Positions 14,553 through 58,192 of a stretch of 64,000 nt of DNA are shown piece by piece. Both the position numbers and the translations under genes were made by a program. Under the pieces are notes generated by a model. That model searched no databases. It was not told the origin of the DNA and was given only the letters and a program-made list of their open reading frames with translations. The DNA is from Candidatus Methanoculleus thermohydrogenotrophicum (lineage in GTDB: Archaea; Halobacteriota; Methanomicrobia; Methanomicrobiales; Methanoculleaceae): positions 4 to 64,003 of the forward strand of contig LFRN01000139.1 in NCBI GenBank assembly GCA_001512375.1, read 5' to 3'. How positions within the stretch are numbered: position 1 is the stretch's first letter; every line of letters starts with the position of its first letter.

Positions 14553-14700
14553 GTGAAACTTACCCCGCCCTAAAGGACGGGGCTTCCCGGCTATCATGGA
14601 CAATACCTGCATCACAGAGGTGTGATGTAGCGGTCTCATCTCCACAGGCTCAAAGGGCTGTTCCATCCCCAGGCGGTGAATATGCACCGTAGCATTATAT
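14553..14700 (-). mobile_element. Non-autonomous IS605 right end carrying the tnpB 3-prime/omega-RNA region
   Basis: Reverse complement closely matches 35065-35204 (GGGATGGAACAGCCC...GAGATGAGACCGCTACATCAC...GAAGCCCCG hairpin) and ends in TTTCAC. Confidence 0.85.
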
Positions 14701-14704
14701 AGTC

Positions 14705-24435: not shown

Positions 24436-25938
24436 TCGTTCCCGCTCTCATCGGCATGGGCGTCCCGGGATACTATACTACACCTTTGAGGTTGCAGTCC
24501 CGATCTCATGATGTTGAACGCCGCATTCTGGTCGCGATCCATCGCGAGCCCGCAGTGTGGGCAGGAGTGGGCCCGGTCAGAAAGCGTCTTTTTGACGGTC
24601 ATGCCACATCTGGAACATTGCTGAGACGTGATTCACCGGGATTCACCAGGATCACACAAGAACCGGCCTCTTCCGTTTTGCTCTCTGTGATCGTGATGAA
24701 CTGATTCCAGGCGACATCGGCAATGCTTTTTGCCAGATGATGGTTCTTCTGCATATTTGTGATATTCAGGTCCTCAAACACGATCGTGCGAACCGATCCA
24801 CCAGCTGCCGGGAGGTCTGGTGAGCAAAATCGAGCCGACGGTTCGCGATCCGTTCATGGATGCGTGCGACAACCTTTCTGGCTTTCTTCCGTTCAGGAGT
24901 GCCTTTCTCCGTTTTTGAAAGTTTCCTCTGCGCCTTCGCAAGCGCTTTCTCGTCGGTGCGGAAAAATCGTGGGTTCTCGGTCTTCTCTCCGTTCGATAAA
25001 GTAGCAAAGGATTCAAGACCTACATCGACCCCGACCACGGTACCTTTCTCTCGTGCAGGAGTGGGCTCATACTCGACTGAGGAACAGGCATACCATTTCC
25101 CGGTCGCGGTACGTCGAATCGTTAATGTTTTGATCGGCCCTTCAATAGGGCGGTGGAGGACGATCGGGATATCACCAATCTTTGACGCGGAGAGGTGCGT
25201 GCCGGCATCGTTGAGATGAAAGCCCGACCGGGGATACCCGGGATTCTCCCCGGCCTTCACCCGTCGGAAGAAGGCTTCAAACGCGAGATCTACACGTTTG
25301 GAGACATCCTGTAAGACCTGAGAGTAGACTGTAGAGAGTTCTGGATGCTCCTTTTTCCAGATTGGAATCTGGCGTTTTGATTCATGGTAGGAGATGGAAC
25401 GCCGTTCCTGCTCCCGGGCATCCTTTCGCATCGCAAGCGTCTTGTTATAGACTCATCGGCATATCTCCAGCGTCTGTTCCATCTGAGAGACCTGTGATTT
25501 TGTCGGGTAGAGTCGATAACGATACGCTTTCATCTGCATGGTCGGGATACTGTTCAAAGAGTTTCTTAGCAGTGATCCCCTGCACGATCTTAATGATCCC
25601 CTGCACGATCTTAACAATGGTGGTGGGAGCAAACTCTGGATGGGCCGTGATAAAGAGATGAACGTAATCAGGCACGACTTCCTGAGTGTTCAAGATGAAC
25701 CCCATATCTTGAGCGATTGATACATGGAGGTCCGTAAGAGTCTCAGCAACATCACCGACCAGAACCTTTTCGGCGGTATTTCGTTGGTCATACAAAGTGA
25801 TAATTCACGTTGTATGCGCATCCTCTTGCACTTATCCAACGACCCTGGTTAACCATTCCACAAAATTATATGCACCATGTGATTATAATTTTTGGTGGAT
25901 GGGCTGTATCCCACCATTAAATGGCGGGGATTAGCCCT
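24436..25938 (-). mobile_element. Degraded IS200/IS605 element (tnpA ~25540-25856, tnpB ~24440-25539), copy A
   Basis: tnpA YNVNYH and DYVHLFI; tnpB KAYRYRLYP, GVDVGL, EDL, CPHCG and DRDQNAA spread over several frames; left-end hairpin GGGCTGTATCCC...GGGATTAGCCC. Confidence 0.9.
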
Positions 25939-26085
25939 ATCCTGATCCTAAAATGCGGGTGGAAGTCAGGTATTCAGGCATATCGAGCCCACAGCGCCAT
26001 CCTCATAAGGATATGGCCTGGAAAACGTTTGTTACGCCCGGGAAATATTTATCACGCCCCGATGCCACCAGGTCTCAGACTGAGA

Positions 26086-26793
26086 ATGACGTGCATATGT
26101 ATCGATACAAACCTCTTCCTCGGACTCTACGGCGCAGATGAGGATCCCGGGGAGATCCTCGCAGACATCTGGGCGCTCAGGGAGCGCCTCGTCTTTCCGG
26201 ATATCATATTTGATGAGTTCTTTCGCAACCGGTCGAAGATCCTCGATCGGTTTGCGGAGGATCTACGGAGGCGGGAGATCGCGGAGGTCCTGCTGCCGTC
26301 GGTTATCCAAAATAATCTGAACGTCGCCACGCTGCAGCGCGCCGGTGAGGATTACAACCGCGTGCTCTGGACGCTCTACGAGGATATCCAGAAGGTGATC
26401 ACGGATCCGGCTGCCGACCCGATTGCGCGGGCGTTCCGCGGCCTCACGCGCGACCCTGCCGTGCGGGTCTTCCGCTGGACCGAGGGCCTCGTCGCGCGGG
26501 CCCACTGCCGCAAGCTCCTCGGTAACCCGCCAAAGAGCCCGAGCACCGATACCATCGGCGACGAGGTCATCTGGGAGACGCTCCTTGCAAACCTGAAAGA
26601 GGACCTCATTTTTGTTACCCTGGACCGGACATACCACTACCATATCGCCTACCTCACAGAGGAGTACCGGGAGAAGACCGGCGGCGCGCTTGTGATCACC
26701 GATCGTGTTTCTGATCCCCTGAAACTCATCGGAAGAGAGCCTTCACCGGCACTGATCAGGTTTGAAAGCAGGGATGCAAAGGAGGCGGGATGA
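26086..26793 (+). CDS. PIN-domain protein (PIN_8/DUF4935-like)
   Basis: IDTNLFL, DEFFRNR, GNPP, GDEVIWETL and FVTLD acidic PIN tetrad pattern. Confidence 0.8.
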   Translation: MTCICIDTNLFLGLYGADEDPGEILADIWALRERLVFPDIIFDEFFRNRSKILDRFAEDLRRREIAEVLLPSVIQNNLNVATLQRAGEDYNRVLWTLYEDIQKVITDPAADPIARAFRGLTRDPAVRVFRWTEGLVARAHCRKLLGNPPKSPSTDTIGDEVIWETLLANLKEDLIFVTLDRTYHYHIAYLTEEYREKTGGALVITDRVSDPLKLIGREPSPALIRFESRDAKEAG

Positions 26794-27395
26794 GGAGCCC
26801 GGTACTCACAGGACATCTCCGGGGGTGTCGACTGCCGTAACGACTCTCAGCGAAGTCGTCCCGAAACCACCTGACGGTTGGAGTTCCTGGCTCAGAGCAC
26901 TCTTACATTCGTTCACAGCAATTTGAGCAATTTCTGGTGTCTATGGGCACATCGTGCCTCTGAGGATGGGCACCGGAGGGGTGGAGGATTCACAGAGACC
27001 GTCTTTCGTGGGCCCGCCCCGGCGTGACTCCCGGACAAGGGTACGGGTGCTATTGCCACCCACAAGGAGGTGGGCGGGACGAATCGCTGCTGTGGTTCAG
27101 CAGAGTCCGATAACCCGGAATCGATGCATTACCGGAGCAATCACACCCTGGCGTGAGACTGCATGGACGAAACCAGCCTCTCTTTGGGAGACAATTCGCA
27201 AAAACCCCACCCGATCTGGAGAGCAGGGGGAGCAATCGTGGCCAATACCCGCTGGTGCGAACCCGCCCCGGGAGTGACCTTAGAGCCCCTCCAGCCTGCC
27301 CGCCCTGGTTGCCCCAGAACCTGGCAAAACGTTAAAATCGTCAGGGACACCATATAAACCCGTGTTCACCTGCGGCGCGGAGGACTGACTGAGAG

Positions 27396-28130
27396 ATGCT
27401 CACCGACCGGGAACTGGAACGCTACCAGCGGCAGATCGCGCTCTTCGGGGAAGAGGCGCAGGCGAGGCTCGCAAGCGCCCGTGTCGTCATCGTCGGGGCA
27501 GGCGGGCTCGGGTGCCCGGTCGCCCTCTACCTTGCCGCCGCCGGTATCGGGGAGATCCGGCTCATCGATGGCGACGTCGTCGACCGGACCAACTTAAACC
27601 GGCAGGTGCTCCACGGTGACCGGGATATCGGGCGGGCAAAGGTCGAGTCGGCGGCAGAGAAACTCCGGGCCCAGAACCCGGAGATCCGGGTCGTTACGAG
27701 GTACGCAACCATCGATGAAGGAAACGCCGCCGTGCTCGCCGGCGGGGCCGACCTCATCATCGACGCCACCGATAACTTCCCGGCCCGCTACATCCTCAAC
27801 CGGGTGGCGCTCCAGAGCGGCGTGCCGCTCATCCACGGAGCGGTCAGGGGGTTTGACGGGCAGGCGACGACGATCATCCCCGGCCGGACGGCATGCCTGG
27901 CCTGCATATTCCCTATCCCCCCGCCGGAGGAGGAGGTCGTCCCCATGGTCGGCACCACGCCCGGGATCATCGGGCTTGTCCAGGCAAACGAGGCGGTCAA
28001 GTACATCACCAGCACCGGCGACCTCCTCGCGAACCGGCTTCTTGTCTGGGACGGCCGGGCCGCCACCATGGCGACCCTGGAGGTCGAGCGGCAGGAAAAC
28101 TGCAGCGTCTGCGGGGACGGCCGGTGCTAG
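27396..28130 (+). CDS. ThiF/MoeB (UbaA-like) E1 adenylyltransferase
   Basis: RYQRQI, GAGGLG, TNLNRQ, DATDN, CLAC and CSVC. Confidence 0.95.
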   Translation: MLTDRELERYQRQIALFGEEAQARLASARVVIVGAGGLGCPVALYLAAAGIGEIRLIDGDVVDRTNLNRQVLHGDRDIGRAKVESAAEKLRAQNPEIRVVTRYATIDEGNAAVLAGGADLIIDATDNFPARYILNRVALQSGVPLIHGAVRGFDGQATTIIPGRTACLACIFPIPPPEEEVVPMVGTTPGIIGLVQANEAVKYITSTGDLLANRLLVWDGRAATMATLEVERQENCSVCGDGRC

Positions 28131-28139
28131 TGCTGTAAG

Positions 28140-28283
28140 TCACCTTTATTTGGGGGTCTTGTGCGTGAGGTGGATAATGACGGATTCTCGCGTGAAGAAC
28201 GCGAAGGGGACTGTAACGCCCTGCAACTGAACTTCGCGTGCGATTGATGATCATCAAGCCCGCACCCCCTCAAATTAAGGTGA
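28140..28283. mobile_element. MITE-like element with 13-bp terminal inverted repeats
   Basis: TCACCTTTATTTG (28140-28152) and CAAATTAAGGTGA (28271-28283), one mismatch, extended by GGGG/CCCC. Confidence 0.6.
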
Positions 28284-28309
28284 AAAGGTCCATTAGAGAG
28301 GGAGATGCT

Positions 28310-28588
28310 ATGCAGGTTCGGGTCAGGGCTTTTGCCCGGTTGCGGGAGGCCATCGGGGGCGACCTCACGCTCGAGGTTCCCCGGGGCGCGACGATGGCCG
28401 GGTTGCTTGCCGCAGTCGGGGAGGTCTCGAATGAGGCACAGGAGGCGCTCTTTGGCGAGAATGGAGAACTCCAGGGGTATGTGATACTGATGCACAACGG
28501 CAGGCGCGTGCGCAGGGCTGAGGTGGAGACCCTCACCCTCGCCGACGGGGACGAGGTCGCGCTCTTCCCGCCGGTGGCGGGCGGGTGA
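28310..28588 (+). CDS. MoaD/ThiS/SAMP ubiquitin-like sulfur carrier
   Basis: VRAFARLRE and C-terminal DGDEVALFPPVAGG. Confidence 0.93.
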   Translation: MQVRVRAFARLREAIGGDLTLEVPRGATMAGLLAAVGEVSNEAQEALFGENGELQGYVILMHNGRRVRRAEVETLTLADGDEVALFPPVAGG

Positions 28589-28594
28589 TTGAGC

Positions 28595-29011
28595 ATGATC
28601 AGCATAACAAGAGATGATTTTGATGTAGGCGCCGCGATCGACCGGCTGCGCCGGCCAGATATGGGTGCCCTGGTCACCTTCCTTGGGGTTGTCAGGGACG
28701 ACGGGATCGAGGAGATGGATCTTGAAGCCTACGAGGAGGTCGCAGTGAGGGAGTTTGCGGCGATCAGGGACGAAGCGTTTGCAAACTACCCCATCAAAGC
28801 GGTCGAGATCATCCACCGGATAGGGAGGCTCCGGGTCGGGGATAACATCCTCCTCATCGTCGTCGGCGCCGGGCACCGGAAGGAGGCTTTCAGCGCCTGC
28901 GAGTACATCCTCGAGCGGATCAAGCAGAGCGTGCCGATCTGGAAGAAAGAGTTCGGGAAGGACGGCAGCGAAAGCTGGGTGCCGGGGGAATACCCTGGAG
29001 GCGACGCGTGA
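28595..29011 (+). CDS. moaE: Molybdopterin synthase catalytic subunit
   Basis: GALVTFLGVVR, HRIGRL, HRKEAF and PIWKKE. Confidence 0.95.
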   Translation: MISITRDDFDVGAAIDRLRRPDMGALVTFLGVVRDDGIEEMDLEAYEEVAVREFAAIRDEAFANYPIKAVEIIHRIGRLRVGDNILLIVVGAGHRKEAFSACEYILERIKQSVPIWKKEFGKDGSESWVPGEYPGGDA

Positions 29012-30225
29012 TCAGATTGCAGCCCTGCCGGAAGGGCTACTCAAAAGAGACCCAGAGGGCGGTCCCGCCAGAGGAGACGCTTCGCCGGGCACGCGCGCGG
29101 CTCCCCGCAGCAGGGATCACCAGGGTCGCTGATATCACGAGCCTCGACCGGGTCGGGATCCCGGTCTTCTCGAGCATCAGGCCGACCGCAGCGACCGGGG
29201 CGATATCGGTCTACAACGGCAAAGGCGCCACTCCCATCGAGGCTGAAGTCTCGGCGATGATGGAGGGGATCGAGCGCTACTCAGGGGAGATGAATGATCA
29301 GGAACCCCTCGTCGGGCGCTACAGCGAGGTCTCGGCCAGCATGACCGCGATCAACCCGGCTGACCTGGTTCTGCCCCCCCGGATCCTGGTTGATGTACCG
29401 GTCCCCTGGGTCGCGGGGTATGATATCATGCAGGAGGAGGAGGTGCTCGTCCCTGCCCACGCGGTCTACCACCCCCTCCCCGTGACCTACGGCCGCCTCT
29501 TCCGGACCAACACAAACGGGCTTGCCTCAGGCAACACCCTCGAAGAGGCGGTCTTCCACGCCCTGATGGAGGTGGTCGAGCGGGACGCCTGGTCGCTTGT
29601 TGAGGCGGCCCGGATGAACGCTCCCCGGATCGAGGGGATCAACGATCGCTTCGCCGCCGACCTCCTCGCGAAGTTCGAGGATGCCGGCATCGAGGTCACC
29701 CTCAGGGATATCACGAGTGATATCGGGGTCCCCACCGTGGCAGCGGTTGCCGACGACGTGGTGCTCAAGGATCCTGCGCTCCTCACGATCGGGATGGGGT
29801 CGCACACCAGCGCTCAGATTGCGGTCCTCCGGGCGCTCACTGAGGTCGCGCAGAGCAGGCTGACCCAGATCCATGGCGCCCGGGAGGATACCGATACCGC
29901 GGATGTCAGGCGAAAGATCGGCTACGAGCGGACGAAACGGATGAACCGGCACTGGTTTGCGGATGGCGGCGACACGGTCGAGCTTGCGGCCATACCGTCG
30001 TTTGACAGCGATGACTTTCTCACCGACATCAACTGCGTCCTCGACCGGCTCGCTGCAGCCGGGCTCTCCCGGGTGATCGTGGTCGACCTCACCAGGCCCG
30101 AGATCGGCATCCCGGTCGTCCGGGTGGTCGTGCCGGGGCTGGAGGTCTACGCGGTGGACCAGGATCGGTTCGGGAGGAGGTGCCGTGACGCGCGGAATCG
30201 TCGTCTTCCTCGGTCCCAGCTGTGA
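29008..30225 (+). CDS. ycaO: YcaO-family McrA-glycine thioamidation protein
   Basis: GITRVADITSLDRVGIPV, NGKG, AMMEGIERYS, NGLASGN, EVVERDA and EVAQSR; followed by tfuA. Confidence 0.93.
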   Translation: MIRLQPCRKGYSKETQRAVPPEETLRRARARLPAAGITRVADITSLDRVGIPVFSSIRPTAATGAISVYNGKGATPIEAEVSAMMEGIERYSGEMNDQEPLVGRYSEVSASMTAINPADLVLPPRILVDVPVPWVAGYDIMQEEEVLVPAHAVYHPLPVTYGRLFRTNTNGLASGNTLEEAVFHALMEVVERDAWSLVEAARMNAPRIEGINDRFAADLLAKFEDAGIEVTLRDITSDIGVPTVAAVADDVVLKDPALLTIGMGSHTSAQIAVLRALTEVAQSRLTQIHGAREDTDTADVRRKIGYERTKRMNRHWFADGGDTVELAAIPSFDSDDFLTDINCVLDRLAAAGLSRVIVVDLTRPEIGIPVVRVVVPGLEVYAVDQDRFGRRCRDARNRRLPRSQL

Positions 30226-30874
30226 CCGCAGAACCGCTCGCGAGATCCTCGAGGCCGACTACCGGCCACCGGCGAGGCGGGGCGATGTAGCCCGGGCCGT
30301 AGAGGCGGGGGCCCGAATTATCGGGCTCATCGACGGGGTCTTCTTCCAGGAGAGCGCCGTCGCCCACCGGGAGATCCTTGCCGCGCTCAGGGCCGGGGTG
30401 CGGGTCGTCGGTGCTTCCAGCATGGGAGCGCTCAGGGCCGCTGAACTCGACAGCCTCGGGATGGAGGGGGTCGGCGAGATCTACCGGGCCTACCGGGAGG
30501 GGAGGCTCGTCTCCGACGACGAGGTGGCGCTCGTCTTCGACCCTGAGACGTTTGTGCCGCTCTCAGATCCGCTGGTGAACATCAGGGCGACCCTGCAGCG
30601 GGCGCTGGAGTGCGGGGCGATCGACGCCGATGCGGCCCGGGGCCTCCTCGACGCTGCAAAGGGGCTCTACTTCCCGGAGCGGACCTACGATGCGGTCATC
30701 GCGGCGGCGACCGGGACGGTGGACCCTGAGGCCCTTGCCCGGTTCGCAGCGTTTGCCGGGGAGCACGCTGTCGACCAGAAACGGAAAGACGCAATCCTGG
30801 CGCTTGAGCGCATCAGGGATCTCGCTGATGGCGTTGAACCGGCCGGTTCAACGATCTCACCGGGGGCGCTGTAG
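30185..30874 (+). CDS. tfuA: TfuA-family thioamidation partner
   Basis: VFLGPS, PPARRGD, IDGVF, HREIL, GASSMGALRAAEL and DDEVA. Confidence 0.93.
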   Translation: MTRGIVVFLGPSCDRRTAREILEADYRPPARRGDVARAVEAGARIIGLIDGVFFQESAVAHREILAALRAGVRVVGASSMGALRAAELDSLGMEGVGEIYRAYREGRLVSDDEVALVFDPETFVPLSDPLVNIRATLQRALECGAIDADAARGLLDAAKGLYFPERTYDAVIAAATGTVDPEALARFAAFAGEHAVDQKRKDAILALERIRDLADGVEPAGSTISPGAL

Positions 30875-32792: not shown

Positions 32793-33479
32793 TCTTGCCC
32801 GGTCCGCACTCCCGGGCGTGATCTCTGCCACGGTCCAGTGCTACTACGTCGATGGGAACGAAGACCTACCAGCGTCCGGAACCCAAACCCCACGGTGGGC
32901 GGGGACGATCACCAGAACCTGGATTGAACCTCGCCGGTATCAACAGGAATGCGATCGTATCCAACGGTTAAATTAGCGTGCAGGAATAAAATTGGTCCAC
33001 CGGGGGCAGGAAGAAGTGAACCCGAGCAGAGAAGAGATCCTCGATCTGATAGACCGGGATCCGGTGACTTCACGAAAGATCGATGCCGTGATGAGGGATG
33101 CCCACAGCGGCAGACTCTGCTACCAGCCTATTGCGGCAGGCGAGGTCGAACTCGCCAGGTAAGCAAAGGGGAGAAGAGGTCGGCAGGTCATCCGGATGAG
33201 GTTGAGCTGCTTCCAGACCCGACGGTAACCGGTCCTGTCCTGAGAACCTACCGCATCGTTCCGATCGGTGAGATTTCACCTCTCGCGTGACCTCGTGCGT
33301 GAGAGGATGCATACGGTCTCTTGCCCAGGCTCTCGCAAACTCAGCGGTGCGGTTTATCCCTGCGGGTTGAAAGGGCAGCGGGAAGACCCCCGCGCAACGC
33401 GGGGATGGGTTCGGTGCCCCCCTTCTTCCGGGCTACTTTCACTGAACAACCCGGGGTTTATCTTGCGGGGTGTGCGGCG

Positions 33480-35204
33480 GCATGAGCGGGAAGTCCCCGG
33501 CCAACAGGTGCGGGGATGAAAGCGGAGCCCCTTCGGCATTGTGATAACTCTATCTACTTGGGTGCCCAATTATAATTCACCTAACATGAAGTATAAATTT
33601 GATAGGTCAGCACATTCAGTGTTTGCTCTCTATTATCACTTGGTCTCTCTATTATCACGTGGTGATTGTGGTGAAGTATCGCCGGAAAGCATTATATTCT
33701 GACGATATTCGGGAGCGCCTGAAAGACATCGTATGGAACCTATCAACCGAGTTTGGGCATAGAGGTCGTCGCTCACGAACCCGCAGAAGACCACTACCAT
33801 CTTCTCTTCAAAGCAACTCCGAAAATCAACCTTGTCAACGCAGTCAACGTGATCGAAGGCGTATCGTCCAGGAGACTACGGCAGGAGTTCCCTGCAACAA
33901 AAAATTTGCTGTGGGGGGATTCATTTTGGTCTCCCTCATATTTTCTCGCAACATCGGGGCAAGTAAGCCTCAATGCTCTGAAAGAGTACGTTGATTCGCA
34001 ACCGGAGAAGTAAATGATCATTTCCTACAACTATCGAGCATACCCCGATGCAACAAGAGAAGCACGTCTGCATGAAGCACTCGATACCTGTAGGTGGCTC
34101 TACAACAAACTCCTTGAAGAATGCAACACTGCGCGCGAGAACGGATCCCCCCTGACAATGCAGGAGACACAAGCACGGATTGTCACGCTGAAAGAGGAGA
34201 ACCCGTTCCTGAAGGGCGTGTACTCCAAAGTACTTCAGATGGTGAACTACACCCTCTGGAGTAACATTCGTGCTCTGTCGCCGACAAAGAAGAAAGGGCG
34301 GAAGATCGGCAAACTCCGGTTCAAGAGCGCAGCCCGGTACCGGACGCTCAACTACAACCAGTCCGGGTTCAAGATCGACCGGGAACACAGCACGGTCACG
34401 TTCTCGAAGATCGGAACAATCCCGTTCACCATGCATCGACCGTACGTGGGAGTCGTGAAAGGTGTCCTGATCACCCGTTCCGGTGACAAATGGTATGTCA
34501 TCATCCAGGCAGAACAGGACGTTTCCGAACCGAAGAGGGAGGGACGATCCGTAGGCATTGACGTCGGGTTGGATTCGTTTGCGGTCGATAGCAACGGTGC
34601 AGTAATCGAGAACCCCCGGTTCTCTGAGCACTCACGTGACCGGATCAAGAAGTTGCAACAGAGTGTTGCCCGGAAACAACGGTTCTCGAAAAATTGGAAG
34701 AAGGCAAAAGGGAAACTGGAGAAGGCATATGATCATATCACAAACCAGAAGAAAGATTTCCTGCACAAACTTTCCCGTCGGTACGTTGATACCTATGCAA
34801 CGATCTGTGTCGAAGACCTGAATATCAAGTATCTGAAAGAGAACGGTAAATCTCGCGGGCTCCGAAGAAGTATCCACAGTGCGTCGTGGGGGCGATTCTA
34901 TTCTTACCTCGCGTACAAGGCTGCAAGTGCTGGTACGAACTTCATTCAAATCGATCCCCGGAATACGACGCAGATGTGCTCACACTGTGGGAGTATCGTG
35001 AAGAAGGATCTCTCTGTGAGAGTTCACGATTGCCCATACTGTGGGTTCGTTGCCGATCGAGATTACAATGCTGCGGTGAATATTCACCGCGTGGGGATGG
35101 AACAGCCCTGTGAGCCTGTGGAGATGAGACCGCTACATCACATCTCTGTGATGCAAGTGTTGTCCATGAAGCAGGAAGCCCCGCCCCCTTCAGCGCGGGG
35201 TAGT
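33480..35204 (+). mobile_element. IS200/IS605 element (left-end hairpin, tnpA pseudogene, tnpB, altered right end)
   Basis: Left-end hairpin TCCCCG...CGGGGATGAAAGCG near 33494-33523; tnpA/tnpB junction TAAATG; right-end hairpin at 35178-35200. Confidence 0.9.
33586..34013 (+). pseudogene. tnpA: IS200-type Y1 transposase TnpA, frameshifted
   Basis: MKYKFDRSAHSVFALYYHLV, a 19-nt duplication at 33626-33663, KYRRK, a second shift near 33753, then DHYHLL (HUH), FWSPSYF and EYV. Confidence 0.9.
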
Positions 35205-37982
35205 ATTGGTGGGTGTATGTTTCGCGTTCTCGTGGTCGACCATGATCCGGCTTTCCTCGAGCTGACCCTGGCATGGCTCGCACGATCAGAGGATATGCAG
35301 GTTGCAACGACGACTTCGCCGGTGCAGGCGCTTGATATGCTCGCCCGGACCCGCTACGACGCCGTCGTTGCTGGCTATGAGATGCCTGAGATGGACGGTA
35401 TCACGCTTCTAAAGGAGATCCGCCATCAGGGCATGAAACTGCCGTTCATCATCATCTCAGGCCGCGGCCGCGAGGAGGTCGTCATCGAGGCGCTCAATGG
35501 CGGGGCCGACTTCTACCTCCGAAAAGGGGGCGACCCCTCTGCTCAGTTTGCCGAGCTCCGGAACATGATCCTCCAGGCGGTTGCGCGGAGTCGGGCCGAA
35601 GCGGTCTACCAGAGCGTCTTTGAGCATACCGGGACCGCCACGATCATCATCGAGGGCGATATGACGGTCTCCCTTGCAAACACCGAGTTTCTGCGTCTCA
35701 CCGGCTACCGCCGGGAGGAGGTGGAGGGGAAGCTGCCCTGGACCGCTTTTGTCGCTGCTGAGGACGTTGAACGCCTCACCACCCACCACCGCAACCGGCG
35801 ACTGGTTCCTGGCCTGGCACCGCGCACCTACGGGTTCCGGCTGGTTGACCGGGAAGGCACGCCCAGGGAGATGTATATGACGGTCGGTCTCATCCCCCGA
35901 ACGGACCGATCGGTCGCGTCGATGATCAATATCTCTGACCGGCGGCGGTTTGAGGAGGAGTTGCGCGCGGCGCACGAAGAGATGGCTGCGGCGTTTGAGC
36001 AGGCAAAGGCAAGCGAAGAGTCGCTTGCGGCGCAGTATCGCGAGCTGGAGGATTACCAGGCAACCCTCCGGGGCATCATCGATTTCCTCCCCGACCCGAC
36101 GTTTGTTCTTGACCGGGAGGGGAGGGTGGTCGTCTGGAACCGCGCGATCGAGGCGGTGACCGGGATCCAGAAGGAGCGTATCATCGGGTCGAGGGCCGGA
36201 GCAATCTCTGAACTGACGGCCGGGCTTTTCTCCCCGCTGCTTGCGGAGACGGTCCTCGCGCAGGAGGGTGGGGAGAGTGTTTCCCGCGAGGTCTGTATCT
36301 CCCCGGCCAATGGTGGGGAGGAGACGTACCTCTGGGGGAAGGCGTCACCGCTCTACGATGCTCAGGGCAGGGTCTCGGGCGCCATCGAGTCGCTCCGCGA
36401 TGTTACCGGGCTGAAGAGGATGGAGGCACAGATCCGGCGCCGGGTAGATCTTGAGCGGATGGTGAGCTCGATATCCACGCGGTTCGTCGCCCTGGACCTG
36501 ACCGACCTGGACGATGCCCTGGATGAGACGATACGGACGCTCGGGTTGTTCCTGGATGTTGACCGGAGTTATATCTTCAGGTTCAGCAGTGACCACACCC
36601 TCGCCGATAACACCCACGAATGGTGCGCTGAGGGGGTTGATCCGCAGATCGCGGTCATGCAGGCGATCCAGACTGATTCGCTCCCCTGGGGGCTTGCGCA
36701 GATCCAGGTTGGCAGGACGATCTGCCTCCCGGCCCTGGACGACCTGCCGGCAGAGGCCGCGGCTGAGCGTGAGTTCCTCGAGCAGTACGGGGTTGTATCG
36801 GTGATCCTGGTGCCGGTCGTGACCGCCGGTGAGGTGGTGGGGCTCATGGGGTTTGAGACCATTGTGCGGGAACGGTCCTGGTCAGAGGATGACATCGCCC
36901 TGCTCACGGTCGTCGGTAACCTGGTCGGCGACCTTCTTGGCCGGGTCCGTGGGCTCAAGCGGCTCCGGGAGAGCGAGGAACGGTTTCGCACCCTCGTGGA
37001 GCGGTCGCATGACTGTTATATCCGCAGAAATACGGTCACATCGGTGATCGAGTACATCAGCCCCTCCTGGGAGCGCCTGATCGGGTATCCGCGCGAGGAG
37101 TGCATGGACGACCCCGGACTCATCGAACGGTTGATCCACCCCGACGACCGGGAGGTCTTCTGCGCCATGCTCCAGGAGCCTGAAGCCGACCGGCTCTACA
37201 CCTTCCGGGCGCTGCGGAGAGACCGACGTTATGCCTGGCTTGAGGTCTGCACGATTCCGGTCTACGGGGATGACGGGGAGGTGGTCGCGGTCGAGTACGC
37301 CGTCCACGATATCAATGCCTGGAAACAGGCCGAGTTGGCGCTCATCGAGGCCAACAGGAAACTCGGCCTGATGAACAGCATCGTGCGGCACGATATCTTG
37401 AACCAGGTGACCGTGGTGCTCGGGTATATCGCCCTCCTCCGGGACCTGCCACTCGACCCCGAGGTCGACAGGGCCCTCGAGAAGCAGCAGGCAGCTGCTG
37501 AGATCATACAGTCCCTGATCGAGTTCACCCGCGACTACCAGGACCTCGGTGTCCGGGCGCCCCGGTGGCTCCAGATCGAGCCTCTGGTCAGGTCGGCGGC
37601 ACGGGCACTCAGGCCGCGCGGGATCAGGATCGTCACCGACCTCAAGGGGGTCTCGGTCTACGCCGATCCGCTCCTCTCGTCCGTCTTCTACAACCTCCTG
37701 GAGAACGCGATGCGCCACGGGAAGACCGTGACCGAGATCCAGGTCACGGCGGTGCCGGAGGGCAGCGGGGCCCTGATCATCTGGGAGGATAACGGCGTGG
37801 GCGTCCCATCCGAGATTAAGGACCGGATATTTGAGCGGGGGTTTGGGAGCCACACCGGGCTCGGGCTCTTCCTGGTCAGGGAGATCCTCTCGATCACCGG
37901 GATCACCATCCGCGAGACCGGGACGCCGGGCGAAGGGGCGAGGTTTGAGATCCTGGTGCCTGAGGACTGCGTCCGGTTTTGA
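34014..37982 (+). CDS. tnpB: Continuous ORF: TnpB (aa 1 to ~397) read through into a REC-PAS-PAS-GAF-PAS-HisKA-HATPase kinase
   Basis: TnpB YNYRAYP, GIDVG, VEDL, CSHCG/CPYCG and DRDYNAA. The kinase part begins at ATG 35217 (MFRVLVVDHD...MPEMDG) and includes RHDILNQ, NLLENA, DNGVG and GLGL. Confidence 0.85.
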   Translation: MIISYNYRAYPDATREARLHEALDTCRWLYNKLLEECNTARENGSPLTMQETQARIVTLKEENPFLKGVYSKVLQMVNYTLWSNIRALSPTKKKGRKIGKLRFKSAARYRTLNYNQSGFKIDREHSTVTFSKIGTIPFTMHRPYVGVVKGVLITRSGDKWYVIIQAEQDVSEPKREGRSVGIDVGLDSFAVDSNGAVIENPRFSEHSRDRIKKLQQSVARKQRFSKNWKKAKGKLEKAYDHITNQKKDFLHKLSRRYVDTYATICVEDLNIKYLKENGKSRGLRRSIHSASWGRFYSYLAYKAASAGTNFIQIDPRNTTQMCSHCGSIVKKDLSVRVHDCPYCGFVADRDYNAAVNIHRVGMEQPCEPVEMRPLHHISVMQVLSMKQEAPPPSARGSIGGCMFRVLVVDHDPAFLELTLAWLARSEDMQVATTTSPVQALDMLARTRYDAVVAGYEMPEMDGITLLKEIRHQGMKLPFIIISGRGREEVVIEALNGGADFYLRKGGDPSAQFAELRNMILQAVARSRAEAVYQSVFEHTGTATIIIEGDMTVSLANTEFLRLTGYRREEVEGKLPWTAFVAAEDVERLTTHHRNRRLVPGLAPRTYGFRLVDREGTPREMYMTVGLIPRTDRSVASMINISDRRRFEEELRAAHEEMAAAFEQAKASEESLAAQYRELEDYQATLRGIIDFLPDPTFVLDREGRVVVWNRAIEAVTGIQKERIIGSRAGAISELTAGLFSPLLAETVLAQEGGESVSREVCISPANGGEETYLWGKASPLYDAQGRVSGAIESLRDVTGLKRMEAQIRRRVDLERMVSSISTRFVALDLTDLDDALDETIRTLGLFLDVDRSYIFRFSSDHTLADNTHEWCAEGVDPQIAVMQAIQTDSLPWGLAQIQVGRTICLPALDDLPAEAAAEREFLEQYGVVSVILVPVVTAGEVVGLMGFETIVRERSWSEDDIALLTVVGNLVGDLLGRVRGLKRLRESEERFRTLVERSHDCYIRRNTVTSVIEYISPSWERLIGYPREECMDDPGLIERLIHPDDREVFCAMLQEPEADRLYTFRALRRDRRYAWLEVCTIPVYGDDGEVVAVEYAVHDINAWKQAELALIEANRKLGLMNSIVRHDILNQVTVVLGYIALLRDLPLDPEVDRALEKQQAAAEIIQSLIEFTRDYQDLGVRAPRWLQIEPLVRSAARALRPRGIRIVTDLKGVSVYADPLLSSVFYNLLENAMRHGKTVTEIQVTAVPEGSGALIIWEDNGVGVPSEIKDRIFERGFGSHTGLGLFLVREILSITGITIRETGTPGEGARFEILVPEDCVRF
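35217..37982 (+). CDS. Hybrid sensor histidine kinase (native start within the fused ORF)
   Basis: Own ATG preceded by GGTGGGTG; receiver, PAS, GAF, HisKA and HATPase motifs. Confidence 0.9.
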   Translation: MFRVLVVDHDPAFLELTLAWLARSEDMQVATTTSPVQALDMLARTRYDAVVAGYEMPEMDGITLLKEIRHQGMKLPFIIISGRGREEVVIEALNGGADFYLRKGGDPSAQFAELRNMILQAVARSRAEAVYQSVFEHTGTATIIIEGDMTVSLANTEFLRLTGYRREEVEGKLPWTAFVAAEDVERLTTHHRNRRLVPGLAPRTYGFRLVDREGTPREMYMTVGLIPRTDRSVASMINISDRRRFEEELRAAHEEMAAAFEQAKASEESLAAQYRELEDYQATLRGIIDFLPDPTFVLDREGRVVVWNRAIEAVTGIQKERIIGSRAGAISELTAGLFSPLLAETVLAQEGGESVSREVCISPANGGEETYLWGKASPLYDAQGRVSGAIESLRDVTGLKRMEAQIRRRVDLERMVSSISTRFVALDLTDLDDALDETIRTLGLFLDVDRSYIFRFSSDHTLADNTHEWCAEGVDPQIAVMQAIQTDSLPWGLAQIQVGRTICLPALDDLPAEAAAEREFLEQYGVVSVILVPVVTAGEVVGLMGFETIVRERSWSEDDIALLTVVGNLVGDLLGRVRGLKRLRESEERFRTLVERSHDCYIRRNTVTSVIEYISPSWERLIGYPREECMDDPGLIERLIHPDDREVFCAMLQEPEADRLYTFRALRRDRRYAWLEVCTIPVYGDDGEVVAVEYAVHDINAWKQAELALIEANRKLGLMNSIVRHDILNQVTVVLGYIALLRDLPLDPEVDRALEKQQAAAEIIQSLIEFTRDYQDLGVRAPRWLQIEPLVRSAARALRPRGIRIVTDLKGVSVYADPLLSSVFYNLLENAMRHGKTVTEIQVTAVPEGSGALIIWEDNGVGVPSEIKDRIFERGFGSHTGLGLFLVREILSITGITIRETGTPGEGARFEILVPEDCVRF

Positions 37983-56719: not shown

Positions 56720-58192
56720 GTGACTGCTCCCCCTCCTCTCGTCGGGAGCATCCCGGGATACTACTGCACCTTTTGAGATTGCAAGCCCCAATCTCATGAT
56801 GTTGAACGCCCGCAGTCTGATCGCGGTCCATCGCGAGCCCGCAGTGTGGACAGGAGTGGGGCCGGTCAGAAAGCGTCTTTTTGACGATCATACCACATCG
56901 GGAACACTGCTGTGATGTATTCCCGGGGTTCACCAGGATCACACAAGAACCAGCCTCTTCCGCTTTGTTCTCTGTGATCGTGATGAACTGGTTCCAGGCC
57001 ACATCGGCAGTACTCTTTGCCAGATGATGGTTTTTATGCATATTCTTGATCTTCAGAGTGAGCAAAATTGTTGGCGTTCCGTTCATGGATGCGTGCGACA
57101 ACCGTTCAGGAGTGCCTTTCTCCGTTTTTGAAAGTTTCCTCTGCGCCTTCGCAAGCGCTTTCTCGTCGGTGCGGAAGAACCGGGGGTTCTCGATTCTTCT
57201 CTCCGTTCGATAAAGTAGCAAAGACCCCGACCACGGTATCTTTCTCTCATGCAGGAGAGGGTTCATACTCGACCGGGAAACAGGCATACCACTTTCCGGT
57301 TGCAGTGCGCTGAATCGTAAGAGTCTTAATCTTACCCTCTATTGGGCGATGAAGAACGATCGGGATATCACCAATCTTTGATGCGGAGAGGTGCGTGCTG
57401 GCATCATTGGGTGAAAGCCCGACCGGGGATACGCCGACCGGGGATACGTGATGCTGTCATACCGCCCCTTCCCCTTGAACCGGGGATACCCGGGATTCTC
57501 CCTGGCCTTCACCCGCCGGAAGAAGGCTTTGAAGGCAAGATCAACGCGTATCTGGACATTCTGCAAGACCTGAGAATAGACCGTGGAGAGTTCAGGACGT
57601 TCTTTTTCCAGAGCGGAATCTGACGTTTCGATTCATAGCAGGAGACCTGTTTCTGTTCATTCTCCCACGCATCCTTTCGCATCGCAAGCGTCTCGTTATA
57701 GACCCAATCGACATATCTCCAGCGTCTGCTCCATCTGAGAGACCTGGGATTTGGTCGGGTAGAGTCGATAGGATACGCTTTCATCTGCATGGTCACATCA
57801 CTTTCTAAGTCTCGATATACTTCTGAATGACCTCTTTTGGCGTATCCCCGCACGTTCCAACATAATAGGATGGGTTCCAGAGATGGCCTTTCCCCCAAAC
57901 ACGTTTCGCAAAGACGGATACCGTCTGAAGAGTTTCCTGGCAGTGATCCCCTTCATGATCTTAACAATGGTAGCAGGAGCAAATTCTGGATGGGCGGCGA
58001 TAAAGACTCAAGCAACATCGCCGTTCAGAACCTTCCGGCGGTGTTTCACCGACCATACGAAGTGATAATTCACGTTGTATCCGCACCCTCTTGCACTTAT
58101 CAAATGACCCCGCTTAACCGTTCTACAATGTTATATGCACCATGTGGTCATAATTTTCTGTCGACGGGCTGTATCCCGGCGGGGGTTAGCCC
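56720..58192 (-). mobile_element. Degraded IS200/IS605 element (tnpA + tnpB), copy B, related to copy A
   Basis: Long near-identical stretches with 24436-25938; right end GGGGAGCAGTCAC at 56720; left-end hairpin partly deleted near 58167-58192. Confidence 0.9.

Follow-up and report, generated by a model that had tools for sequence, protein, structure and literature searches.

In characterized IS200/IS605 systems, the guide RNA is derived from the structured right end of the element. Overlapping transcripts at the 3′ end of tnpB have been described in archaea (PMC4615843). Known exapted or immobilized TnpB proteins include one found with a sigma factor, DppD-TnpB, and others, in which the nuclease is often inactivated, and the survey of such exaptations sought links conserved at least across the species of a genus (PMC10691335). 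The locus analyzed here lies in a 64,000-nt stretch of DNA from Candidatus Methanoculleus thermohydrogenotrophicum (hereafter the window). It resembles ISDra2 of Deinococcus radiodurans in the order of its genes, tnpA followed by tnpB, and in a TnpB with HTH, RuvC, and zinc-ribbon regions. As in IS200/IS605 elements, subterminal GC-rich hairpins occur at both ends, a short motif is conserved at the left flank, and tnpB overlaps, at its 3′ end, a right end that is predicted to be structured.

A single ORF of 1322 amino acids with an ATG start (34014–37982, forward strand) joins an intact TnpB in one frame to a kinase with the domain order REC-PAS-PAS-GAF-PAS-HisKA-HATPase, as the original prediction had stated. 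In the tnpB portion (34014–35203, forward strand; residues 1 to about 396), Pfam placed HTH_OrfB_IS605 (PF12323, 36.8 bits) at fusion residues 1 to 44, OrfB_IS605 (PF01385, 82 bits) at 168 to 277, and the zinc ribbon Cas12f1-like_TNB (PF07282, 82.8 bits) at 292 to 357, all above their cut-offs. The kinase has an ATG of its own and would be 921 amino acids long from there (35217–37982, forward strand). In fusion residues 405 to 1317, Pfam detected Response_reg (405–509, 73.2 bits), three PAS regions, GAF (831–972), HisKA (1118–1176; 24.7 bits, slightly below the cut-off of 26.9), and HATPase_c (1220–1317, 59.4 bits). On the forward strand, REC lies at about 35226 to 35540, followed by PAS, PAS, GAF, and PAS, with HisKA at about 37365 to 37541 and HATPase_c at about 37671 to 37964. 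The H-box RHDILN and the N and G boxes are readable in the kinase sequence. HisKA and HATPase_c, both conserved in comparison with the orthologues, mark the protein as a predicted hybrid sensor histidine kinase.

The three RuvC acidic residues and the two zinc knuckles that had been claimed for the TnpB half were found in the motifs GIDVG (181), VEDL (266), and DRD (348) and in CSHCG (322) and CPYCG (340), respectively. The RuvC residues around D183, E267, and D348/D350 have been retained, as has the zinc ribbon. Among 22 family members, the focal TnpB had only four private substitutions, a number similar to that of the sister copies, and no private change in the columns of the RuvC acidic motifs. 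In a PDB search, the nearest solved structure was the active ISDra2 TnpB (8bf8, 8exa, and 8h1j; E = 4e-40, query residues 6–361), and the conserved TnpB core stops near residue 361 in this match. The D-E-D RuvC acidic triad is thus present in the fused TnpB, a putative nuclease. A second TnpB family is also represented in the window by two copies (24477–25912 and 56787–58177, minus strand) that are 32 to 39% identical to the focal TnpB; both contain internal stops, and they form a direct repeat, 83 to 97% identical and about 32.2 kb apart.

The element is of the IS200/IS605 tnpA-tnpB type and spans 33457 to 35204. Its left end (33457–33585, forward strand) starts with TTTAT and contains a subterminal GC-rich hairpin. 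Homology to more than 60 left ends of the family starts at 33457, and the flanks that precede it are unrelated. The first conserved left-end bases in the family are TTTAA or TTTAT, which is probably the target or TAM motif. The tnpA gene, for a Y1/HUH transposase, is a pseudogene with pieces in three frames (33586–34013, forward strand): a 19-nt tandem duplication lies near 33625 to 33662, downstream of the ATG at 33586, and a second frameshift lies near 33750. The two matches to Y1_Tnp (PF01797) are in different frames (33641–33763, profile positions 2–41; 33741–34004, profile positions 34–121) and the ATG is in the third, which agrees with the claim that tnpA is dead. Other assemblies annotate this remnant as an 86-residue Y1_Tnp fragment.

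The right end, presumed to be the omega-RNA scaffold region (35040–35204, forward strand, with an approximate start), overlaps the 3′ end of tnpB and ends in GTAGT. In the alignment of the right-end family, hairpins are conserved with four covarying pairs, and the focal copy lacks the last four bases of the scaffold, TCAC. A scan of 33000 to 35600 with E values up to 1 matched no Rfam family, and the putative right-end RNA appears to correspond to no curated one. About 55 right ends were inspected, namely, 27 copies from the genus and approximately 28 to 30 from this genome. GTAGT is followed in these by TCAC and then by unrelated flank, whereas in the focal copy alone it is followed by ATTGG, so the missing terminal TCAC had been noted correctly. 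Contigs of paralogous copies in Logan runs likewise diverge right after 35204 and continue with TCAC. With tnpA reduced to a pseudogene and the right end devoid of its terminal cleavage motif, the focal copy is predicted to be immobile, that is, unable to move by the usual route, as had been proposed.

The sister end that the original prediction used for comparison (14553–14590, minus strand) exists as quoted and is part of an orphan right-end fragment (14553–14702, minus strand), which is 89 to 92% identical over 106 to 141 nt to 35064–35204 and has a complete TTTCAC terminus. This fragment belongs to the ATGATAGCCGGG sub-type, which differs slightly from the focal one, and the unfused allele described below and the 27 family copies are better comparators. 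Many solo right-end fragments of the ATGATAGCCGGG sub-type occur in the genome (C69, C117, C220, C221, and others). The genome also contains dozens of miniature elements of approximately 60 to 70 nt, in which the start of a left end is joined to a right-end terminus with a single hairpin (e.g., C183:22993–23052, C183:33673–33733, C252:11635–11696, and C33:59815–59851). They end in GTAGTTCAC and resemble MITE- or PATE-like derivatives of the focal element family. Joints from left to right end (33497 to 35186) were seen in contigs of all four Logan runs. In three sister copies (L033, L036, and L046), the 3′ part of tnpB carries a 51-nt hairpin-like insertion within the presumed RNA scaffold (alignment columns 131–181).

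The fusion arises at the terminal hairpin of the right end (35178–35201, forward strand), which has a 7-bp stem and a 10-nt loop (35185–35194). Throughout the family, the stem of this hairpin is conserved at 7 to 8 bp, and the loop varies in sequence and length. TnpB is usually approximately 395 amino acids long in the family, and the TAG used as its stop lies at 35201 to 35203, out of frame in the focal copy. An unfused allele of the same locus was found through the 90% cluster of the fusion protein, which includes a 921-residue protein identical to the kinase part. Two contigs that encode this protein, L011 (biogas-fermenter assembly in ENA) and L012 (JGI metagenome), share the insertion and the GTAGT/ATTGG junction with the window and likewise lack TCAC. 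Outside the hairpin, 5.9 kb of L012 show no difference from the window, and 6.95 kb of L011 show a single further mismatch. At the position of GCCCCC in the window, the unfused loop has GTCC; with 8 nt, it is thus 2 nt shorter, and a T versus C substitution distinguishes the two as well. The two extra bases of the window belong to a run of five Cs (35184–35188) that begins at the last stem base and continues into the loop. When 141-nt stretches were folded, both alleles formed the same 7-bp stem, and the difference was confined to the loop. In the unfused allele, TnpB stops at the end-encoded TAG, in frame and 13 nt before the kinase ATG, which confirms that 2 extra nucleotides move the TAG out of frame in the window. 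The shorter loop with its TAG, which was to count against the fusion, is present in some assemblies, but as a second allele. The family consensus of the loop is GCCC, and each allele is one step from a stop-bearing form; the fused state thus descends from one with a stop and is very young.

Loss of the stop is not peculiar to this copy. In a tally over 27 sister copies, which omits one copy, 17 stop at the TAG within the terminal GTAGTTCAC, five stop at a TGA within the terminal hairpin loop, and four skip the stop through loop indels and read 11, 38, 67, and 82 amino acids into the flank. The longest of these tails belongs to the closest paralogue in this genome (C252:14027–15199, minus strand, locus L042), which is 85% identical to the focal copy; the tail overlaps, in a different frame, with a UspA-like gene located downstream. 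Just upstream of this paralogue, at C252:15349–15510, there is an orphan right-end fragment. Read-through of the right end is thus a recurrent and tolerated accident in the family, affecting approximately 15% of copies, or one in seven, because the stop comes after a hairpin loop that is not constant in length. Unlike the four sister copies that run 11 to 82 amino acids into flanking DNA, the focal copy alone among the TnpB read-throughs enters a downstream gene cleanly, across four codons, and does so in many samples. When long proteins carrying a focal-like TnpB were sought in a database, only the cluster of the fusion and a singleton cluster, P0003 (L050:2501–5137, ENA contig), were found. 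The latter comes from an unrelated bacterial IS605 with intact tnpA and tnpB, whose TnpB ORF continues for approximately 100 nonhomologous residues and then enters a response regulator of the NtrC type (REC, sigma-54 activator, and HTH_8), and it looks like a second accidental read-through of a like kind.

The junction matches the sequence quoted in the original prediction exactly. The final base common to the focal and sister copies is 35204, and the kinase ATG (35217) follows after 12 further bases (35205–35216, forward strand). This spacer, the sole remnant of the native 5′ region of the kinase, contains a Shine–Dalgarno-like GGTGG, and in the fused frame it encodes I-G-G-C. The source assembly consists of 287 contigs and is 88.9% complete, and an error in the C-run was therefore a fair worry. 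However, Logan contigs from four runs of four studies (two DNA and two RNA libraries) cross the junction with no mismatches and no gaps (35130–36300, 35175–36300, 35129–35893, and 35138–35579), and no indel is listed across the 3 kb that such contigs cover. At least 98% of the sampled words of 34700 to 35700 were found in 14 DNA runs from at least seven studies dated 2015 to 2025, all of them anaerobic-digester, biogas, or sludge metagenomes, and six metatranscriptome runs contained 76 to 98% of these words. The identical 1322-residue protein is recorded in 42 blocks of public assemblies, among them four contigs longer than 1 Mb, compared with six contigs for the unfused allele. The fused DNA is real and widespread, coexists with the unfused allele, and is confined to one species; the fusion is thus far from unique to the source assembly, although it is unique to the species.

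The explanation that we favor, with a probability of roughly 0.75, is that the fusion is a neutral or nearly neutral read-through, young and polymorphic, and an accident rather than a new enzyme. An IS200/IS605-type element, located 12 nt before the kinase ATG, separates the ribosome-binding site of the kinase from its promoter and would have become immobile through frameshifts in tnpA and loss of the right-end TCAC cleavage site. In one lineage, the loop of the terminal hairpin would then have gained 2 bases with the stem unchanged, and the resulting shift of frame by two would let translation skip the TAG and pass through the 12-nt spacer into the frame of the kinase. A shift of 2 bases would be sufficient because only four codons lie between the end of the element and the co-oriented ATG. 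The 1322-residue product, if made, would be a tolerated by-product and not a selected enzyme. This neutral explanation is favored by the near-identical unfused allele at the same locus, by the absence of the fusion from 21 sister species that have the kinase, by the approximately 15% of sister elements that have lost their stop in a like manner, and by the lack of adaptation since the fusion: the two alleles do not differ in the Shine–Dalgarno-like motif, the ATG, or any of the 921 kinase residues. Amino-acid polymorphisms among the fused variants fall in the TnpB part only (positions 6, 145, 247, and 263), with none in the 921 kinase residues. Two findings count against it, namely, that the fused allele is the commoner one in public data, which may reflect selection instead of clonal hitch-hiking, and that the TnpB part is fully intact and has not accumulated more private changes than paralogues that look active. 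The missing TCAC, orthologous sites without TTTAW, and an adjacent inversion are compatible with several routes by which the element may have arrived.

We then considered the kinase and its regulatory surroundings. Full-length orthologues are present in 21 of the 24 sister species searched, with 63 to 73% identity, and their alignments start at query residue 1 to 3 and run to the last residue, or to 887 in a copy truncated by its contig end. They are stand-alone genes of approximately 930 amino acids, with open frames of 933 to 1072, and in none of these 21 species is a TnpB joined to the kinase, so the search of related genomes for the same fusion speaks against its conservation. The orthologues have a G-rich Shine–Dalgarno-like motif just before the ATG (the 16S rRNA of this genome has the 3′ end GGATCACCTCCT) and an A/T-rich TATA-like box about 30 to 45 nt upstream. 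At the focal locus, the box is absent, and GC-rich coding sequence occupies the 100 nt that precede the kinase. The insertion thus appears to have separated the kinase from its native promoter while sparing the ribosome-binding site and the ATG. As these 100 nt contain no TATA-like box, transcription of the kinase now presumably starts within the element or passes through it. Translation of the kinase can presumably still begin at the native ribosome-binding site and ATG, which are unchanged, in line with the prediction that the kinase keeps its own start at 35217. If TnpB still binds the right-end RNA, the guide position would be occupied by this ribosome-binding site and start codon, and TnpB binding would compete with translation of the kinase for one transcript.

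A clean empty site could not be reconstructed from the relatives, as the flanking block is inverted in two of them, and the orthologous sites contain no TTTAW. In these two species (L017 and L018), a homologue of the gene at 26002 to 26790 is a divergent neighbor of the kinase, approximately 190 nt away. In the window, the block 26002 to 30871 is inverted relative to L017 and L018 and lies 4 to 9 kb from the kinase, with an ATP-grasp gene and relics of insertion elements in between; the breakpoint of this rearrangement coincides with the element.

The orthologues share approximately 70% protein identity, at which synonymous sites are probably saturated, and the two alleles are nearly identical. 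Relative-rate counts gave no sign of decay in either the TnpB or the kinase half. At sites otherwise invariant among the other nine sequences, the focal kinase has 31 private changes, compared with 42 in a lineage of similar depth, and HisKA and HATPase are well conserved. These counts suggest that the kinase is not decaying.

An alternative that we regard as unlikely, although better placed than the other two discussed below, is that the fusion was selected as a rescue of kinase expression, with the TnpB moiety as a passenger. The insertion would have removed the promoter and placed the start region beside a stable hairpin that TnpB may bind, and read-through would bring ribosomes to the kinase. 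The displaced TATA-like box with only 12 nt of the 5′ region remaining, the predominance of the fused allele in public assemblies, and the continued conservation of the kinase are all in keeping with such a rescue. Contigs from RNA libraries that span the junction also agree with it. A transcript across the junction probably exists, but these contigs are a weak hint, given that DNA carry-over is possible, and contig depth in the Logan runs cannot rank expression. On the other hand, the unfused layout, in which TnpB stops 13 nt before the ATG with a Shine–Dalgarno-like motif in between, already looks well suited to re-initiation. Moreover, the predominance of the fused allele may be due to clonal hitch-hiking, as the alleles differ by 0 to 1 other bases in 6 to 7 kb.

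It is less likely still that the 1322-residue protein is a functional chimera, either a PAS/GAF-gated RNA-guided nuclease or a kinase tethered to DNA, at its own start region, by the guide RNA. Hardly more credible, and if anything slightly less so, is the fuller version in which the chimera is made, has a function of its own as a gated TnpB or a guide-held kinase, and thereby caused the fused allele to spread in digesters. The intact RuvC acidic motifs and zinc ribbon, the active ISDra2 TnpB as nearest solved relative, and the immobilization of the element, treated as a precondition of exaptation in PMC10691335, would fit a chimera, and the approximately 40 residues between the end of the TnpB core near 361 and the receiver could serve as a linker. 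However, the fusion occurs in one species only and is polymorphic there, and the link conserved across species that was sought in the exaptation survey (PMC10691335) is not found. By that criterion, the fusion does not qualify as an exapted TnpB, because the kinase occurs without TnpB in 21 of 24 sister species and an unfused allele exists within the species.

The properties of the receiver and of the would-be guide also weigh against a chimera. The original prediction had noted a G at the expected phospho-Asp of the receiver, and we found this Gly codon at 35373 to 35375 on the forward strand (kinase residue 53, fusion residue 454). Both D53G and D9H in the acidic pocket are private to the species, as nine of nine aligned orthologues have D at both positions, and a deletion of seven residues after the receiver is likewise private. 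The domain that would link the two halves is thus a pseudo-receiver that has lost its phospho-acceptor. The Gly is found in the fused and unfused alleles alike, which indicates that the receiver changes did not follow the fusion. In the RNA, loss of the last 4 bases of the right end alters the junction between scaffold and guide. If the RNA of the element still guides, the guide would be the 12-base spacer plus the start of the kinase. When the full genome was scanned for another target of this guide (16 nt with up to three mismatches; 12 nt with up to one), all matches were at chance level: there were six hits at up to three mismatches, and a rough estimate of the number expected by chance was higher. 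One candidate, C275:9310, was attributed to chance, with its TTTAT 2 bases out of register and two mismatches. The proposed birth of a signal-responsive nuclease or a DNA-targeted kinase thus found no supporting result. If the chimera were nevertheless true, the near-isogenic unfused allele would be a ready-made natural control.

The possibility that the C-run owes its 2 extra bases to faulty sequencing or assembly and that the true sequence is unfused can be dismissed as far as contigs show, since, despite the fragmented assembly and the 2-nt shorter version in other assemblies, the five-C version occurs in independent contigs of four runs from four studies without an indel, the exact protein recurs in the 42 blocks, and the versions differ by a T versus C substitution beyond the length of the run. 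Overall, the neutral read-through offered in the original prediction is favored, its homopolymer-error option is refuted, and its new enzyme remains without a supporting result.

In literature searches, we found no report of a TnpB-kinase fusion or of TnpB read-through. The locus provides an example of an IS200/IS605 element that has rewired a host gene, displacing its promoter and, as far as transcription can be inferred, forcing its co-transcription with tnpB. A variable loop before the stop would produce read-through tails and occasionally the gain of a whole host protein; this is one plausible route by which TnpB could acquire new domains, and the locus may be a snapshot of a possible first step. 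In practical terms, annotators will keep calling a 1322-residue "transposase/PAS-domain kinase" in this common biogas methanogen, and a read-through fusion explains such a call. Both near-isogenic alleles are present in public metagenomes and offer a cheap natural experiment on function.

Compared with same-genus archaeal kinases of the REC-PAS-GAF-PAS-HisKA-HATPase type, to which it is orthologous with the same domain order and 63 to 73% identity, the focal kinase is distinguished by D53G, D9H, the seven-residue deletion after the receiver, and replacement of its promoter by the element. The element departs from IS200/IS605 systems in that tnpA is a pseudogene, the terminal TCAC is missing, and the stop of TnpB is lost, so that its ORF runs into a host gene. 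Like exapted TnpBs and nuclease-dead TnpB-like repressors, the locus has an immobilized TnpB physically linked to a host regulatory gene; unlike them, it has this link in one species, in a polymorphic state, and with the nuclease motifs intact. We conclude that the locus is an immobilized IS200/IS605 insertion with an incidental ORF fusion.
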